The notes under the pieces were generated by a model. That model did no database searches. It saw nothing but the letters and a program-made list of their open reading frames with translations, and had not been told where the DNA came from. From a virus (lineage: Duplodnaviria > Heunggongvirae > Uroviricota > Caudoviricetes), in the IMG/VR virus record IMGVR_UViG_2645727604_000023: DNA of 6,567 bases; one strand, given 5' to 3'. Shown piece by piece: positions 1-6,567 of the stretch (position 1 is the first letter of the stretch; every line of letters begins with the position of its first letter). Position numbers and translations under genes: made by a program.

Positions 1-405
1 ATGGATCAGGTCGTTGTTTTTCAAAAGATGTTTGAGCAAGTGAGAAAAGAGCAAAACTTCTCCTGGTTTTATTCAGAATTAAAACATCACCGTATTGCAC
101 ATTACATTTATTATCTGGCTACGGATAACATCAGAATTATTACTCACGATGACACGGTTTTATTATTAAGAGGAACCAGGAACCTGTTAAAAGTTAGTAC
201 AACCAAGAACCCTGCTAAAATAAAAGAGGCCGCATTGCTTCATATTCGCGGAAAATCTACATTTCGGGAATACTGTTCAACACTGGCAGGCGCTGGCGTT
301 TTCCGGTGGGTTACTGATGTTAATTATAACAAACGCAGTTACTACGCCATTGATAATACGCTTTTATATATTGAAGATGTAGAAAATAATAAACCATTAA
401 TCTAG
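1..405 (+). CDS. DUF1398-family small protein (YcgX/YbcV/YdfO-like), function unknown
   Basis: 134-aa ORF beginning at window position 1 (upstream context not visible). The protein resembles the E. coli DUF1398 paralog family from memory, not from a search. AT-rich, on the chromosomal side of the icd-fragment junction. Confidence 0.6.
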   Translation: MDQVVVFQKMFEQVRKEQNFSWFYSELKHHRIAHYIYYLATDNIRIITHDDTVLLLRGTRNLLKVSTTKNPAKIKEAALLHIRGKSTFREYCSTLAGAGVFRWVTDVNYNKRSYYAIDNTLLYIEDVENNKPLI

Positions 406-612
406 CTAAAGTTGGGAGCTTAAGAAATGCTTCATAATTCAGTAAGGCATTAGCATAATGGAAATAAAAGTGCAGAGACCATCCCTATGGATGATTAATA
501 CTGTCTTTTTATTGCCCCCCATAAATAATCACCAGACCAATACGATCAAATTGATATTTGAAATGTGTTCACTTGACTTTTGATACGTTATTTTATAACG
601 GTTAACATATTT

Positions 613-653
613 ATAAAAACAACGGGCGTGTTATACGCCCGTTACAGTTTTTA
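613..653. terminator. Bidirectional rho-independent terminator (icd 3' end, and possibly the convergent upstream gene)
   Basis: Perfect 9-bp stem aacgggcgt (621-629) / acgcccgtt (635-643) with a 5-nt loop. It is flanked by an A-run on one side (ataaaaac, 613-620) and a T-run on the other (gttttta, 647-653), so each strand sees hairpin plus U-tract. It lies 14 nt beyond the icd-fragment stop. Confidence 0.55.
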
Positions 654-666
654 ACGCATGCAGAAA

Positions 667-831
667 TTACATATTCTTGATGATCGCGTCACCAAACTCT
701 GAACATTTCAGCAGTTTAGCGCCTTCCATCAGACGTTCGAAGTCATAGGTTACGGTCTTCGCATTGATTGCGCCTTCCATACCTTTAACAATCAGGTCAG
801 CCGCTTCAGTCCAACCCATATGGCGCAGCAT
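667..831 (-). pseudogene. icdC: Displaced 3' fragment of isocitrate dehydrogenase (icdC-like), last 54 codons plus stop
   Basis: Minus-strand translation gives [54 protein letters not shown], recognisable as the Icd C-terminus. The reading frame has no upstream continuation: sequence past 831 is unrelated AT-rich DNA. Confidence 0.8.
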
Positions 832-840
832 TAGTTAGAT
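820..840. other. Prophage/chromosome junction (attR side) inside icd
   Basis: Icd-coding homology ends abruptly at 831/832; on the minus strand the codon expected upstream of MLRH is replaced by unrelated AT-rich sequence. e14 is known to integrate in the 3' end of icd. Confidence 0.55.
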
Positions 841-889
841 GACTAAATCATAACTATTTGACATAGCAACATAATTTTACTAATTTGCA

Positions 890-926
890 TATAACTCATT
901 AGCTCTTAGCATTTCTATAACTCATT
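890..926. repeat. Direct repeats tataactcatt (890-900 and 916-926) in the AT-rich prophage arm
   Basis: Exact 11-bp direct repeat 26 bp apart, with a third ataact copy at 850-855, within 100 bp of the att junction. Candidate integrase arm-type or other protein-binding sites; function not demonstrated. Confidence 0.3.
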
Positions 927-1064
927 GATTATAAACATGTGTTTTTGAGTTTTGATAACCATTTTTAGCATAAAAATAGCTGTTAACATTTGCAGAAATT
1001 AAGATCAGAGAAAATTTTTACCCTGTAGGGTATTACGTCTTAAATGTGACTTTAATAAACAATT

Positions 1065-1898
1065 TTATTTCTGTAATCGGTTTATATTAACGTAAAGCAT
1101 CTCGATTAGTTCTTTTGCATTTTTACTATAGTGTAATTCTCTATGACAATTCGGACAAAGGGCAACACAGTTATCTGTTGTATCAGCACCACCTGAAGAC
1201 AGAGGAATTACATGATGCACTTCCAAATATGGGTTTCCATCATTTAAATAAAACGGAGCATTTTTACCACAGTTTTCACATATACCTTTACTTTGCTGTA
1301 AAATCCAAGCTTTTACCATCGGGTCTCGAACATAAACTTTTTGTAGTCTTTCTACCTCAACTGGTTTCCTGGAGCCCTCGGGTTGACTCAACGTTTTCTT
1401 AATTAATTTACTAACCCTCATATTCAGAAGCGATTCATCATCTGTAGGCTGTGAAAGCTCTGATAGTTCTCCACGTATTATAGACGCCCAAAAACTGTCA
1501 CTATAAATTCCTGGAACATTTATCAATATTCGTTTCGTTCTATTGCCGGAAGGAATTTCCTTTCTCCCCGTACGACTAAAATAAGCCTGATAACCACACA
1601 TCTTCAAGCGTATATCGCGGGGGCTATTACCAATCAAAGTAAAATATTCACCAGGATGGATTTTTCTTTCATCCAAAGAATGCATATGTTTTCTGACTGA
1701 TGATGACGCCAGATATACTACGACTTGGGATACACCAGAATCAACCAACCGTTCAATGATATAATCAAGAGCGATATTGTAATCTTTGTTTCTGTCACCC
1801 GGCCCCCACGACTCAAGGATTAGACCATAAACACCATCCTCTTCACCTATCGAGCACTCAGCTTTCAGTTCAATTCCATTATTATCAAAAACATGCAT
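1065..1898 (-). CDS. mcrA: McrA, 5-methylcytosine-specific (Type IV) restriction endonuclease with C-terminal HNH nuclease
   Basis: 277-aa ORF with N-terminus MHVFDNNGIELKAECSIGEEDGVYGL. C-terminal Cys/His HNH motif CENCGKNAPFYLNDGNPYLEVHHVIPLSSGGADTTDNCVALCPNCH. Size and sequence match my recollection of E. coli McrA; position next to pin at the prophage end also fits. Confidence 0.9.
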   Translation of the reverse strand: MHVFDNNGIELKAECSIGEEDGVYGLILESWGPGDRNKDYNIALDYIIERLVDSGVSQVVVYLASSSVRKHMHSLDERKIHPGEYFTLIGNSPRDIRLKMCGYQAYFSRTGRKEIPSGNRTKRILINVPGIYSDSFWASIIRGELSELSQPTDDESLLNMRVSKLIKKTLSQPEGSRKPVEVERLQKVYVRDPMVKAWILQQSKGICENCGKNAPFYLNDGNPYLEVHHVIPLSSGGADTTDNCVALCPNCHRELHYSKNAKELIEMLYVNINRLQK

Positions 1899-1926
1899 AA
1901 TATTAATCTTTAATCAATTTTTCACG

Positions 1927-1956
1927 ACAATACTACTTTTATTGATAAAATTGCAA
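1927..1956 (-). promoter_or_regulatory. Candidate sigma70 promoter for mcrA
   Basis: On the minus strand: TTGCAA (-35, 1951-1956), 18-bp spacer, TATTGT (-10, 1927-1932), about 30 nt upstream of the mcrA ATG. Sequence-only guess with a suboptimal spacer. Confidence 0.2.
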
Positions 1957-2004
1957 CAAGTTGCTGTTGTTTTACTTTCTTTTGTACACAAAGTGTCTTT
2001 AACT

Positions 2005-2559
2005 TTATTTATCCTCTGCAGGAAACCTCTTATACAAAGTTGACACACCAACATCATAGATAATCGCCACCTTCTGGCGAGGAACTCCTGATGCAATTAA
2101 TCGTCCGGCCTGTGCCCATTGTTCTGGTGTAAGTTTGGGACGACGTCCACCAATTCGCCCCTGTGCGCGAGCAGCTTCCAGTCCAGCTTTTGTTCGTTCA
2201 ACAATCAGTTCACGCTCCATTTCAGCCAGGGCACCCATCACATGAAAGAAAAAGCGTCCCATTGGTGTGCTGGTATCAATTGAATCCGTCAGACTACGAA
2301 AGTTGATGCCTCGTTCGCGCAACTCCTCCACCAACACGACAAGATGCCGCATACTACGCCCCAGCCGATCCAGCTTCCAGACAACCAGAGTGTCACCTGC
2401 CGATAATGTCCTGAGCAGTTTTTTCAGTCCCGGCCTTTCGGACTTTGTGCCGCTTATCTTGTCTTCAAAAATCAGCTCGCATCCTGCACAGTTCAGCGCA
2501 TTACGTTGTAGATCTGTGTTCTGGTCATTTGTTGATACGCGTACATAGCCAATAAGCAT
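2005..2559 (-). CDS. pin: Pin-type serine DNA invertase (Hin/Gin/Cin/Pin family)
   Basis: 184 aa from the start MLIGYVRVSTNDQ, which has the catalytic-serine motif of serine recombinases, and a C-terminal HTH (GVPRQKVAIIYDVGVSTLYKRF). A strong SD (GGGGGAG) sits about 5 nt upstream of this ATG. The ORF track's longer 2005-2595 version starts at an upstream ATG with no SD. Confidence 0.9.
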   Translation of the reverse strand: MLIGYVRVSTNDQNTDLQRNALNCAGCELIFEDKISGTKSERPGLKKLLRTLSAGDTLVVWKLDRLGRSMRHLVVLVEELRERGINFRSLTDSIDTSTPMGRFFFHVMGALAEMERELIVERTKAGLEAARAQGRIGGRRPKLTPEQWAQAGRLIASGVPRQKVAIIYDVGVSTLYKRFPAEDK

Positions 2560-2585
2560 GGTAGCTCCCCCTGACAAAAGCAGGA

Positions 2586-2975
2586 ATGATGCCATTTGCT
2601 CGTTATTTCTGCATTTTCATAAACGTTGGTTTGGGAGAATTATCTCTGGCTGGCACTGCATCGGGTGTCATTGGCCTGAATGGGTATGTAACGATCCCGT
2701 TAATTATTTCAGGTTCCCGGAGAACACTGATTATTCAGTGGGGGCAGGCGAGATTTGGTGGGTCTGGTGGTGAAGATGCCGGATATCTTAACGATTTTCC
2801 TTTTGCCTTTCCGTCAGCATGTTATGGAATGATAGTTAGTCATGTGGGGCATACACCTTCAGGCGCAGGAATCCTGTCGGCTTCTGCAATTACATCAAAT
2901 CAGTTCCGCGGTTTTTCAAGCATAGCGACTGCTGCAAACGCTGTATTAGGTCGTTATATCGCTATAGGGGTGTAA
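2586..2975 (+). CDS. Promoterless alternative tail-fibre C-terminal cassette (Sv'-like), silent in this orientation
   Basis: The ORF crosses the left inversion site, whose conserved core encodes GLGE (codons 15-18). From the crossover the frame continues for 111 codons to a TAA that is coupled to the next gene (TAATATG). It has no plausible independent start context, so the functional unit is probably the portion from about 2628 onward, fused to the constant fibre N-terminus after inversion. Confidence 0.6.
   Translation: MMPFARYFCIFINVGLGELSLAGTASGVIGLNGYVTIPLIISGSRRTLIIQWGQARFGGSGGEDAGYLNDFPFAFPSACYGMIVSHVGHTPSGAGILSASAITSNQFRGFSSIATAANAVLGRYIAIGV
2614..2639. repeat. Left inversion crossover site (hix/gix-like 26-bp site)
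   Basis: Minus strand reads TTCTCCCAAACCAA-CGTTT; its first 14 bp are identical to the right site at 4498-4511 in inverted orientation, and 18 of the first 19 bp match. It fits the invertase-site pattern TTnnnnAAACC-NN-GGTTTnnnnAA and lies immediately upstream of pin. Confidence 0.75.
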
Positions 2976-2976
2976 T

Positions 2977-3414
2977 ATGTTTTATAGTCCATCTTTAAAC
3001 ATTTTTGTGAATCCTGCACTTAAGGATGATTACATTAATGCAAATTCATGGCCAGATGATGCTCTGGCTGTCAGTGATGATGTTTATAATGAATTTGCAA
3101 TCAATACGCCTCCAGATGACAAAATTCGTGTTGCAGGAAAAAATGGATTACCCACATGGGCACTAATACCTCCACCATCACATGAAGAACTTATTCAACA
3201 GGCAGAATCAGAAAGGCAATTATTGCTTAATCAGGCCAACGAATACATGAACAGTAAGCAATGGCCCGGTAAAGCCGCTATTGGTCGTCTGAAAGGTGAT
3301 GAACTGGCGCAATATAATTTGTGGCTGGATTATCTGGACGCACTGGAGCTGATCGATACTTCCGGTGCGCCAGATATTGAATGGCCTACGCCTCCGGCAG
3401 TTCAGGCCAGATGA
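2977..3414 (+). CDS. Tail-fibre assembly protein (Tfa/U'-like), partner of the silent cassette
   Basis: 145-aa ORF with SD AGGGG 6 nt upstream. Its C-terminus LDYLDALELIDTSGAPDIEWP resembles the conserved C-terminal motif of caudoviral tail-fibre assembly chaperones and the C-terminus of the convergent gene at 3386-3979. Confidence 0.75.
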   Translation: MFYSPSLNIFVNPALKDDYINANSWPDDALAVSDDVYNEFAINTPPDDKIRVAGKNGLPTWALIPPPSHEELIQQAESERQLLLNQANEYMNSKQWPGKAAIGRLKGDELAQYNLWLDYLDALELIDTSGAPDIEWPTPPAVQAR

Positions 3415-3979
3415 CATCCGGCGCTGTGCTGGTATCTGTTGCCGTCACCGCGTCAATGTAATCCAGCACAGCGTTAAGTCGGGTGTTTTCTGGCTGCGTC
3501 AGCTTCCGCCCAGCCTGTAATTTCAGTTGAATCAGACTGATGGAAGCCATTGCAGCATCAATCAGCGACTGGCGCTGTGCTTCTGCCGCTTCTACTGCGG
3601 CGCTATGCTGTGCCTCGGTATCCGTCACCCATTTCTCACCATCCCATTTATCGTATGGCGTTAACGGTGAAAGCGTGACATAACCGTCTTTGATGGCACC
3701 GATATAATCCACTGTAACAGCTGCGCCATTTTCAGTTGAGTAAACGGTCTCATTGCGATGGTCTTCTTCATGGCTCCATCCCTTACCCGTAAATACTGCC
3801 ACTTTTCCCGGGATGTTTTCGCCCGGGTCAATACCAGTGGAACAGGCGGGTATACTTACGCCAGTATTAATATATTCATCAGACCAGCCGGTATATTCAT
3901 ACGTTACTGCATTATAATAAAAACAACGCATATCGCCCGGCACTGTAGCCAGCCAATTTTCATCAAAAACAGGTATCAT
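3386..3979 (-). CDS. Tail-fibre assembly protein (Tfa/U-like), expressed-orientation partner
   Basis: 197-aa ORF; its start overlaps the tail-fibre stop (TAATG); SD GAGGG upstream. C-terminus LDYIDAVTATDTSTAPDVIWPELPEA is the Tfa C-terminal motif. Its 3' end overlaps the convergent tfa' gene by 29 bp. Confidence 0.8.
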   Translation of the reverse strand: MIPVFDENWLATVPGDMRCFYYNAVTYEYTGWSDEYINTGVSIPACSTGIDPGENIPGKVAVFTGKGWSHEEDHRNETVYSTENGAAVTVDYIGAIKDGYVTLSPLTPYDKWDGEKWVTDTEAQHSAAVEAAEAQRQSLIDAAMASISLIQLKLQAGRKLTQPENTRLNAVLDYIDAVTATDTSTAPDVIWPELPEA

Positions 3980-4800
3980 TATTTAGCCCTCACCAGAAAG
4001 TTGAATGCAATATTTCGTGGACGGGTTTCTGTATCTACATTTCCACTAATTTCACCATAACGTTTAACACTACGAGAGCTAAGAGCTCGTAGTGAGGAAG
4101 GCACATTAAGACCGGGTTCGTCCGTTTTAACTATTCCCCCGTCACCGTATGTAGCCAGTATTCCTGGGTTTACTCCTTCCCGTGCACTTCCTGCGGCAAG
4201 CCCGTCCCCCGTCCACAATTCCATATTGTGTGCATGATCCATAATTGTGTGTGATTGCCCTGAAAGTAGGGTACGTCCGACATCAATCCCGCGCCCATCA
4301 TCCCAGATACGAATGAAATCACCCCGTGCGTCAGGTAATGCTAGCGCCGGAAACACTTTCGCCAGCACAGGGTAATCAGTGGCAGAGAATTTCGCGCCGT
4401 TGAACTTCAAAAACACCATACTGGACCAACTGTCGATTACAGTATTTGGCATTGCGGCGGACGGCCAGAAGAACGGAACGCCAATACCTGGAGCACCTTC
4501 TCCCAAACCAAGGTTTTCGAGAGCCGTTTTCACCGTGCCATCCGATTTGATATCGCCAAACGGATTCTTGCGGCTTAACAGCAGCGCACGAAGCGCGGTA
4601 AGCAGCTGGTCATGCCGCCCCTTCTCCAGGCTGGCACCGGATGCCTCCACCACGCTGCAAAGCTCCTCCTGCAACATATCAAAGTAGTCATCATCAAGAT
4701 CGGTGGCAGGCGTGCCGGTCTGGGGGTTACCACGGGTAAAACCGTTCTTACCCGCGCCGAACTTATCCTTCTGCGCGGTTTTCGTGTCTATACGATGCAT
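3979..4800 (-). CDS. Tail-fibre protein: about 100-aa constant N-terminus (Mu S-like) fused to the currently active variable C-terminus
   Basis: 273-aa ORF with GGAG SD. The N-terminal stretch [17 protein letters not shown] resembles the Mu S / P2-type fibre N-terminus. The right inversion site lies in-frame at codons 95-101 (ENLGLGE). The C-terminal part carries a tail-collar-like motif (NG...YP.L...[19 protein letters not shown]). Confidence 0.8.
4498..4523. repeat. Right inversion crossover site (hix/gix-like), inside the tail-fibre coding sequence
   Basis: TTCTCCCAAACC-AA-GGTTTTCGAGAG, an imperfect dyad around a central AA. It is the inverted partner of 2614-2639. Confidence 0.75.
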
Positions 4801-4803
4801 GGA

Positions 4804-5388
4804 TTACTCCGGATATTTAAAAATTACGTAGGTATGCGACGGGCAGAGTTTGTTAAGCACACACTCGACAACGGTGTCGCCCCAGATACGCAGCGCGGAA
4901 TCACAGGGATCGCCACATGTCATCCAGGTGGTGTTGGTGGCGGCTGGCATGTTGACCTGCCAGTAATACCGCCATTCAGGCGCATTCACAGCGTCAGTAC
5001 AGGCCGATGAGCAGGTGAACGTGCTTTTGTCGTATCGCGTGATGGTGGCATCTGGCCTGCCCAGGGCAGCAAGCTGTGCAAGATAAAAATCCTCGTTGAT
5101 GCCGCCCGCCAGGTTAACCTTCGCATCCAGCCGTTGCTGACGCTGGCGAAGGGTCTGCGCTCCCGCCGGAATACATTCATCCGGCAGACCGCACAGACGC
5201 TCCCAGCGGTTTATCAGTTCAGTGGTGGTGCGCGGATCCAGCTCCCGCATCAGGGCATCCGCACGCTGATGAACGCGGGTTAATGACGGTGCCGCACCGG
5301 CAATCGCCGGATCGCTGGCTGACCACGCCGGACCGGGGGGCAACAGTGCCGACAACAGACGGATGTAATCATCGTTTGTCACGTCCAT
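4804..5388 (-). CDS. Mu gp48-like tail/baseplate protein (YmfQ-like, DUF2313 family)
   Basis: 194-aa ORF directly upstream of the tail-fibre gene, with a 3-nt gap. Its start overlaps the stop of the upstream J-like gene. Family assignment is from position and recalled similarity, not a search. Confidence 0.75.
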
Positions 5389-6440
5389 GAAATCGTCCCC
5401 AGAACCGCCAGTTCATTTTTCGCAATGGAGATATTGTCTGCCGGTGCAAGCAACTGATGGCTATATTCCCCGTTCGCACCGGAAATCGCCTCACTGATAC
5501 GCGATACCTTCAGTTCTCCCTGCGGATAACCATCACGCAGAAGAAACGAACGCAACTCCGCGGTGATGGCAGCCCGTATTTCCGGTGTGTCCGGCGTCAC
5601 GCGGATATGAAAATCCACCGTATGCGCCACCGGCCTGAATACATACAAATCAGAGCCTGCCACCGGGGCCAGTGGCACAATATGTTGTCTTGCCGCCGTT
5701 TCCGTTGATTCTTCCGGAATGGGATTAATCAGGTCACTGCTGGCAATCATCACACCGACAGTTCCCGTTCCCATCCAGTGACGGTATGTCCATGCGCGGG
5801 TAATGCCGGGCACTTCTTTAGCCCAGACGACATAGTCCACGTCAGCCCCGCCCTGAGGCGTCCAGTAATACCGCTCAATGACGCGGGCGCGCCACGTTTC
5901 CAGATCTTCAGTATCAAATCCGCCTGTAAGGGTGTCAGCCACACCGGAAGACGGCAGACCATTCACCGGCGTGACCAGGATTAATGACGTACCGTCGTCA
6001 GCGTTACCGACCGCACCTGAACTTGAGCAGGCGATCGGCACGCGCAGGACACCACCGGAGCTGGTTGCATCGGCAGTTGCCGTGTACTGAACCAGGTCAT
6101 CGCGCTGAATAACACTCCCGGCGGTCACCTTCAGGCCATCATCGCTGACACCTTCCCAGCGCATATACCCGCTGGCAGCCGTGGCCCCCTTGCGCGGACA
6201 CCGTTTCATCGCAGCATGTCGCGCCAGCCAGGACTCATCGCACAGGTCAGGCAGCATGTTCATTGCCAGATAATCGATGTAACCGTAAACCGTATGCAGC
6301 GCCGCCGCATACACCTTTGCCCGCACGTCTTCATCCATGCGCCGGAGCGTGTCGCTGACGTCCAGCCTGGCGAATAAATCGTTACGGAGCATACTGATAT
6401 TTTCTGCCAGCGTCGGGCGCTGAAATTCACTGTCCGCCAT
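5379..6440 (-). CDS. Baseplate J-like protein (Mu gp47 / P2 gpJ family)
   Basis: 353-aa ORF on the minus strand in a GC-rich region. Located between the gp46-like and gp48-like genes, as in Mu. The many small overlapping ORFs in the track here are out-of-frame artefacts. Confidence 0.75.
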
Positions 6441-6567
6441 GCGTTATCGCACTCCACAGATCATCAAAAGAAATCATTACCGGTCCGTCACGACGCCAGA
6501 GAGTGATACTGTTACCCAGTTCATTAATCCCGGTGCGGCGGATATCCAGATCAATACGGGACACCAC
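6427..6567 (-). CDS. Partial CDS, C-terminal 46 codons of a gp46/GPW-like baseplate protein; 5' end lies beyond the window
   Basis: Hand translation of the minus strand from 6567 gives an open frame [46 protein letters not shown] with the stop at 6427-6429. It overlaps the start of the J-like gene by 14 nt. The function is inferred only from its position in the Mu-like order. Confidence 0.45.
   Translation of the reverse strand: MVSRIDLDIRRTGINELGNSITLWRRDGPVMISFDDLWSAITHGGQ

Follow-up and report, generated by a model that had tools for sequence, protein, structure and literature searches.

Phage Mu inverts its G segment by means of the Gin invertase: two convergent cassettes, each comprising a fibre tip and its chaperone, lie within the segment, a constant fibre N-terminus sits outside it, and the invertase gene is found just beyond its far end. 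The C segment of phage P1, on which Cin acts, follows the same switch logic. In Escherichia coli K-12, inversion of the P segment of prophage e14 was described in the 1980s. The gene order there, as read in MG1655, is ymfQ - ycfK (StfP) - tfaP - tfaE - stfE (a pseudogene) - pinE - mcrA - icdC. The e14 inversion was revisited in 2014 (PMC4272514) and again in 2025 (PMC12529663). Both orientations coexist in clonal MG1655-derived cultures, in which inversion by PinE fuses ORFs (Goldberg et al. 2014, PMC4272514). The inverted K-12 segment, on which PinE and PinQ act, measures 1797 bp, and its repeats consist of TTGGTTTGGGAGAAGG and the complement of that sequence (Kirigo et al. 2025, PMC12529663); according to the same study, Mu G and the phase determinant of Salmonella can likewise be inverted by PinE (PMC12529663).

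Here we analysed a stretch of 6,567 nt, referred to as the window throughout, from the IMG/VR virus record IMGVR_UViG_2645727604_000023. We put a probability of roughly 90% on the reading that it contains a PinE-driven P segment operating as a phase switch that gives the receptor-binding end of a tail fibre two states. The switch itself is already known—it is the e14 P segment with its invertase PinE, and the tip alleles are already present in RefSeq. Since the e14 inversion has long been known and the exact fusion protein is in RefSeq, the locus has little discovery value. It serves as a positive control, in that a reader working from the bare sequence (the initial annotation) rebuilt a programmed inversion and its product correctly.

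Gene content, gene order and a megablast search of complete E. coli genomes assign the window to the right end of a prophage of the e14 family (SfV/Mu-tailed) in E. coli, next to icd. It opens with ycgX (1-405; DUF1398), followed by a 3’ fragment of icd (icd’; 667-831) and mcrA (1065-1898, minus strand; HNH). This is the layout of an e14 right end at icd, with a duplicate icd 3’ fragment and then mcrA and pinE as the terminal genes. At the other end of the window, ymfQ (4804-5388, minus strand) belongs to the Mu gp48 family (Pfam Phage_Mu_Gp48, 1.9e-26), and a baseplate J gene of the Mu gp47 family (5379-6440, minus strand; 353 aa) matches Pfam Baseplate_J at 1.4e-51; the fibre gene is presumably co-transcribed with these upstream late genes. 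The complete order, icd’-mcrA-pinE-[Sv’-tfa’-tfa-Sv]-Sc-ymfQ-baseplate J, is that of K-12 e14, and apart from the variable cassettes the window aligns collinearly with e14 of MG1655 at ~97-98% identity. The gene order is equally that of Mu, gp47-gp48-S(c+v)-U-U’-S’v-gin, the upstream gp47 and gp48 genes being homologous.

The invertase gene, pinE (2005-2559, minus strand), encodes a DNA invertase of the serine type, 184 aa long. An ATG at 2595 would lengthen the ORF, but RefSeq homologues begin at the equivalent of 2559. The protein comprises Pfam Resolvase (1.5e-51) and HTH_7 (1.5e-13) domains, matches the PHROG DNA invertase family (1.8e-97) and carries the N-terminal MLIGYVRVSTNDQ motif with the catalytic serine. 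It is identical to K-12 PinE at 180 of 184 positions (98%) and to Mu Gin at 143 of 182 (79%). A motif scan placed a Fis-like 15-mer at the same point in pin and gin (nt 94-108), with the position of a second site being ambiguous. Inversion would presumably be assisted by Fis and by an enhancer within the 5’ part of pin.

A repeat finder run on the window returned two inverted arms, at 2621-2639 and 4498-4516 (19 nt, 95%), which contain an exact 14-nt core, TTGGTTTGGGAGAA, at 2626-2639 on the plus strand and 4498-4511 on the minus strand. This core was not matched in any of 200 dinucleotide-preserving shuffles, even with one mismatch allowed. Extending the repeat to the site format of the Hin/Gin-type recombinase family yielded two crossover sites of 26 bp each. 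The left site (2614-2639) reads TTTTCATAAACG-TT-GGTTTGGGAGAA, with its central dinucleotide at 2626-2627; its outer half falls into the pin-proximal spacer and its inner half coincides with the GLGE codons of the unfused cassette. The right site (4498-4523), TTCTCCCAAACC-AA-GGTTTTCGAGAG, has its central dinucleotide at 4510-4511 and lies within the fibre codons for ...ALENLGLGE. Hin/Gin-type invertases exchange strands after a 2-bp staggered cut, for which the cores have to match; in the window, AA forms the core of both sites once they are read in one direction. Both sites are imperfect dyads, with 8-9 of 12 symmetric positions in agreement (8/12 in the left site).

Each of the two sites is identical, at 26 of 26 positions, to its counterpart in K-12 MG1655 e14 and in the E. 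coli genomes CX04, CX05 and PSS-08-2, and the left one is also identical (26/26) to the site in FDAARGOS_1373. The Mu gix sites share the layout of half-site, 2-bp core and half-site, and match the left site at 17/26 positions and the right site at 18/26, but have GA as their core dinucleotide in place of the AA of the window. The H segment of Salmonella, inverted by Hin, is alike in recombinase family and in the 26-bp site design. Hin, however, flips a promoter and so turns a gene on or off, whereas the system in the window swaps coding C-termini.

The latter follows from the reading frames at the two sites. The initial annotation had claimed that GLGE is encoded in frame at both crossovers, and we located the codons (GGT TTG GGA GAA) in both ORFs, 2586-2975 and 3979-4800, with starts 42 nt and 291 nt from the ATGs at 2586 and 4800, respectively; in the 273-aa fibre they specify residues 98-101. 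The invertible P segment (2627-4510; ~1.88 kb) holds a pair of variable C-termini for the fibre and, converging on each other, two genes for tail-fibre assembly. We inverted it in silico and translated the product from the fibre ATG at 4800. This gave an ORF of 212 aa composed of the 101 constant residues and 111 residues beginning LSLAGTASGVIGLNGYV, with neither a frameshift nor a premature stop at the junction, and the product was unchanged wherever within the repeat the exchange was placed. The forecast that residues 1-101 would be joined to a different 111-residue C-terminus, for a fibre of 212 aa instead of the present 273 aa, was thus reproduced in both lengths, and all other figures given there proved right as well. 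Also as forecast, tfa’ (2977-3414) is brought behind the fibre, beginning 1 nt past the new stop codon. The predicted fusion is identical over 212/212 residues to an annotated protein, WP_047612773.1 of E. coli FDAARGOS_1373, in which the cassette occupies the expressed position; the 145-aa tfa product encoded downstream of that fibre is identical to the tfa’ product of the window at 141 of 145 residues.

In its present state, the fibre gene (3979-4800, minus strand; 273 aa) is made up of a constant part (4498-4800; residues 1-101) and a variable tip (3979-4497; 172 residues plus the stop codon). The full-length fibre matches the PHROG tail fiber protein family at 4.3e-68, and its tip matches the PHROG tail-collar fibre family phrog_523 (7.1e-49), T4 gp37 (2xgf; E 3.8e-4) and the short tail fibre 9cuy. 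Against Pfam Collar (PF07484), the tip scored 18.1 bits, under the gathering cut-off of 24. With that score below threshold and the PHROG and T4 gp37 matches as support, we refer to the tip as collar-like and not as a certified member of the Collar family; it resembles the collar region of T4 gp37 and gp12. The constant N-terminus is weakly similar to that of Mu S (22/68 identical), a similarity confined to the N-terminal ~70 residues. Mu S is otherwise different, being 504 aa long as opposed to 273 or 212 aa here, and the Mu tips Sv and Sv’ are unrelated to those of the window.

The alternative tip currently resides in an unfused ORF adjoining pinE (2586-2975, plus strand; 129 aa, beginning MMPFARYFCIFINVGLGELSLAGTASGVIGLNGYV), whose codons 1-18 specify a spacer-encoded leader followed by GLGE and whose codons from 2640 onwards specify the 111-aa alternative C-terminus. 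The initial annotation had taken this cassette to encode a tail-fibre domain and had suggested an HMM search, in which the expected similarity emerged. Residues 131-211 of the 212-aa product match Pfam Gp53-like_C (PF21882) at 4e-12 and 46.9 bits, above the gathering cut-off of 24.9. PHROG tail-fibre families were matched as well, and a profile comparison with the PDB returned the R1-pyocin fibres 6cxb (E 5.5e-4) and 6cl5 together with AP22 gp53 (4mtm), at E values of up to 0.29. Going by these matches, the alternative tip is a Gp53-like_C domain as found in R-pyocin fibres. An AlphaFold2 model of ORF 2586-2972, built on a 16-sequence alignment, reached a pLDDT of 38.8 and a pTM of 0.27 and gave no usable fold; the homologues in this alignment were 71-99% identical, i.e. 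too similar, and fibre tips are trimeric. Given that pLDDT, the fold assignment of the alternative tip relies on the HMM matches, which are moderate.

Each tip is paired with its own tail-fibre assembly chaperone. The one belonging to the alternative cassette, tfa’ (2977-3414, plus strand; 145 aa), matches Pfam Caudo_TAP (1.2e-32) and PHROG 188, a tail fiber assembly protein family (5.2e-60). Its counterpart for the present tip, tfa (3386-3979, minus strand; 197 aa), matches Caudo_TAP at 1.2e-27 and PHROG 105 at 6.8e-82, and shares 123 identical residues with K-12 TfaE. The two genes are convergent and overlap by 29 bp at their 3’ ends.

Comparison with K-12 e14 reveals the same switch with different alleles. 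The two elements share the chromosomal site and the neighbours icd’, mcrA and ycgX, a constant fibre N-terminus that is identical at 100 of 101 residues, both families of tip domain (Gp53-like and collar-type) and the conserved C-termini of the chaperones. They differ in the tips themselves, which are diverged alleles (~28% identity, 31/111, for the Gp53-like domain and ~45% for the collar-type one), in the N-terminal halves of the chaperones and in segment length, which is 1797 bp in K-12 and ~1.88 kb in the window. In MG1655 it is the Gp53-like tip that is joined to the constant part, which makes the orientation of the window the reverse of that in MG1655. The nearest fibres from sequenced phages are found in the serotype-converting Shigella phages SfII, SfV, SfI and SfIV: their short tail fibres share 56-70% identity with the 212-aa product, across 75-100% of its length. 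In these viable phages, which have the same tail module, a tail-fibre assembly gene likewise follows the short tail fiber gene.

The megablast search covered a set of 5,426 complete E. coli genomes. The fused junction, as a 401-bp query, was matched end to end in 24 of them at 96.5-98.3% identity, and these matches are annotated as ‘gp53-like domain-containing protein’. In 48 complete genomes the same cassette adjoins pinE, as it does in the window, and the present fibre junction was found in 73.

Flipping is most directly visible when sibling isolates are compared: over 6187 bp, CX04 and CX05 differ in nothing but the 1845 bp between the repeats, which are exact reverse complements of one another; this difference is a natural inversion at exactly these sites. 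More broadly, both orientations occur, at identical chromosomal coordinates, among the near-identical isolates CX04/05/07/15/21 and again among the near-identical isolates 0H15/18/23/24/25/26. The CX05 fibre is identical to that of the window at 271 of 273 residues. The CX and 0H series have the 273-aa tip in common with the window, and their second tip is different (a 207-aa fusion). The exact cassette pair of the window was absent in the flipped state among the complete genomes when an in-silico inverted 3.2-kb query was used: 14 genomes matched at ≥80% coverage, none of them above 91%, and the best full-length matches lay at 84-91%. These 14 genomes have one cassette in common with the query and a different one in the other position. 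As the exact pair was not recovered flipped, it is CX04/CX05 and the 0H series, as homologous elements with identical sites, that attest flipping directly.

The window thus combines an invertase gene, paired sites, an in-frame crossover and convergent cassettes of tip and chaperone, as in the Din-family switches of Hin, Gin, Cin and Pin. The Mu G-like architecture and the 79% identity between Pin and Gin together make PinE-catalysed inversion the best-supported mechanism. According to this model, PinE dimers would bind the inverted 26-bp sites at 2614-2639 and 4498-4523, cleave them at the two central base pairs and carry out strand exchange, whereby ~1.88 kb would be flipped. Because one site lies inside the fibre gene and GLGE is in the same frame at both, the constant N-terminus can be joined to either tip. 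This 101-residue part presumably attaches to the baseplate. In the present state, the 172-residue collar-type tip would be co-transcribed with the 197-aa Tfa, and in the flipped state the 111-residue Gp53-like tip with the 145-aa Tfa. For the source strain, which is represented by a single assembly (GCA_001265765.1), inversion is expected to occur in the same manner. By analogy with Mu G, P1 C and K-12 e14, the outcome would be a functional switch that changes receptor specificity and hence host range.

One may ask whether such a switch, though intact, could be inert—a relic in a defective prophage that forms no particles, so that inversion would have no effect on receptor specificity. K-12 e14 is indeed a cryptic, defective remnant with the pseudogenes oweE, aaaE, jayE and stfE, and the neighbourhood of the window shows decay of its own, in the form of a deletion of ~820 bp that has taken out ymgK and iraM, both of them retained in K-12. 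Moreover, contig JHSB01000012.1, whose end the window represents in reverse complement, stops 1 base beyond the window, cutting the prophage, and for this reason the head and tail genes are out of view. Yet all six parts of the module (pin, two tips, two chaperones and the constant part) are intact ORFs, as are ymfQ and the 353-aa baseplate J gene, the latter corresponding to jayE, a pseudogene in K-12. PSS-08-2, the complete genome nearest to the window (99.5% identity over positions 2000-5200), has a full-length prophage of ~40 kb at icd with integrase, lysis, terminase, portal, capsid, sheath, tube, tape measure and baseplate genes, implying that the switch need not be a relic, unlike in K-12. 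The homologous short tail fibres of the viable relatives SfV, SfII, SfI and SfIV likewise speak for function. We therefore regard an inert switch as unlikely, albeit the most probable of the alternatives.

Another reading concerns the cassette that our preferred model treats as silent. Translation of ORF 2586-2975 might begin at its own ATG and yield a free protein of 129 aa that would serve the host by masking outer-membrane receptors and so hindering other phages from adsorbing. In K-12, the P state arranged like the window creates such a protein, the PinQ-activated StfE2, from the stfE leader MPFACYFFIFINVGLGE and a Gp53-like C-terminus (PMC12529663). When produced from a plasmid, StfE2 reduced T2 adsorption to 3-12% and protected against several phages (PMC12529663). 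Like StfE2, the ORF of the window adjoins pinE and consists of a spacer leader ending in GLGE—here the equivalent leader MMPFARYFCIFINVGLGE—followed by a C-terminus of the same domain family. It is annotated as a gene by RefSeq in homologous genomes, and its two ATGs, at 2586 and 2589, are closely preceded by an AGGA motif. With plasmid-produced StfE2 reported to block T2 adsorption, the cassette otherwise called ‘silent’ might serve the host in the orientation seen here.

Several observations weigh against this view. The StfE2 activity was seen upon over-production from a plasmid, and at ~28% identity (31/111) between the Gp53-like domains of the window and K-12, receptor-masking specificity need not transfer. 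The AGGA stands 0-3 nt from the two ATGs, which is poor spacing. We found no sigma-70-like promoter on the plus strand near 2500-2586; a promoter and terminator scan of 1900-5000 returned as many matches as expected from shuffled sequence and singled out a promoter neither for pin nor for ORF 2586. Among homologues, the leader varies non-conservatively (MPVSRNRC, MPFACYFF, MMPVTRYLC), as expected of a non-coding spacer. Fibre tips, finally, normally require trimerisation on a shaft and a Tfa chaperone. A free, StfE2-like protein is consequently improbable in our view, more so than an inert switch. The same low standing is given to the broader proposal that the P switch is a host-domesticated, recombinase-gated defence acting through a free Gp53-like protein, whose specificity has been diversified by cassette exchange among E. 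coli. If the StfE2-like reading were true, inversion would toggle host defence instead of, or besides, phage host range. E. coli strains differ in their tip alleles at the switch, which would matter if the claim of protection against T2-like phages by one of the two orientations holds.

That the repeat and the open alternative frame are a coincidence and the sites do not recombine can practically be dismissed: apart from the exact repeat being short (14 nt), nothing favours it, and it is contradicted by the 0/200 shuffles matching the core, the full match of both sites to ones whose inversion has been demonstrated by experiment in K-12, the natural flips at exactly these positions in CX04/CX05 and the adjacent invertase gene.

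As for existing annotations of the switch that we identify as the e14 P segment, the RefSeq names are ‘gp53-like domain-containing protein’ for the cassette in its unfused form, which is thereby treated as free-standing, and ‘hypothetical protein’ for the fused fibre of 273 aa; an annotation that takes orientation into account would serve these entries better.

In reverse complement, the window corresponds to the terminal 6.6 kb of contig JHSB01000012.1 from assembly GCA_001265765.1. The contig stops one base past window position 6567 (position 1 of L008, the contig locus), within the gene upstream of baseplate J, and the remaining prophage must therefore lie on another contig or be unassembled. 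A full-length e14-family prophage of ~40 kb occupies icd in the closest complete genome, that of strain PSS-08-2 (NZ_AP027679.1, 1768000-1806500). It encodes intE/xisE, a LexA-like repressor, lysis genes and iss, together with terminase, portal and capsid genes and those for the tail sheath, tube, tape measure and baseplate. Most of these genes are lost from the e14 remnant of K-12. Two extra genes, one of them encoding an AAA ATPase, separate icd from intE in PSS-08-2.

Near the icd' fragment, the window (region 405-667) lacks ~820 bp that are present between ymgL and this fragment in both K-12 and PSS-08-2, and that include ymgK and the anti-adaptor gene iraM. Alignment to the homologous annotated E. 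coli locus L001 matched window 1-658 to L001 3001-3658 and window 616-6567 to L001 4480-10428, with the two alignments overlapping by 43 bp (window 616-658). This overlap coincides with a hairpin-containing repeat, AAAACAACGGGCGTGTTATACGCCCGTT. The loss of ymgK and iraM looks like a deletion that arose when two copies of this repeat recombined.

Within the invertible P segment, the 3' ends of the two convergent tail-fibre assembly genes share 29 bp (window 3386-3414), the same overlap as between K-12 tfaP and tfaE, and both encoded proteins terminate in a conserved ...APD(I/V)(E/I)WP..P.. motif. In the adjoining invertase gene pinE, nt 94-108 (window 2451-2465, minus strand) form a Fis-like 15-mer, GAAGACAAGATAAGC. 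The Mu invertase gene gin carries a similar Fis-like motif, GAAGATAAATTAAGC, at the same codon position, and the pinE 15-mer is a candidate for one half of a recombinational enhancer. A motif scan for the second Fis site of this putative enhancer returned an ambiguous position.

Some genomes harbor two copies of the pin/P-segment module, one oriented like the query and the other inverted, as in strain JB2 (NZ_CP182203.1, 3111423-3114612 and 4380022-4383245). In isolate CX15, one module copy resides on an 18-kb record (NZ_CP081745.1) separate from the chromosome. Where a single cell possesses several Pin-family invertases, P segments could be inverted in trans.

RefSeq labels the fused 273-aa fibre a ‘hypothetical protein’ and the unfused cassette either a free-standing ‘gp53-like domain-containing protein’ or a ‘hypothetical protein’, while the unfused collar cassette of isolate CX04 is listed as a pseudogene ‘missing N-terminus’. 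The orientation of the P segment is ignored in this annotation (L001 6453-6839 and 7843-8664, and 2084-2458 of L006, a further homologous E. coli locus).
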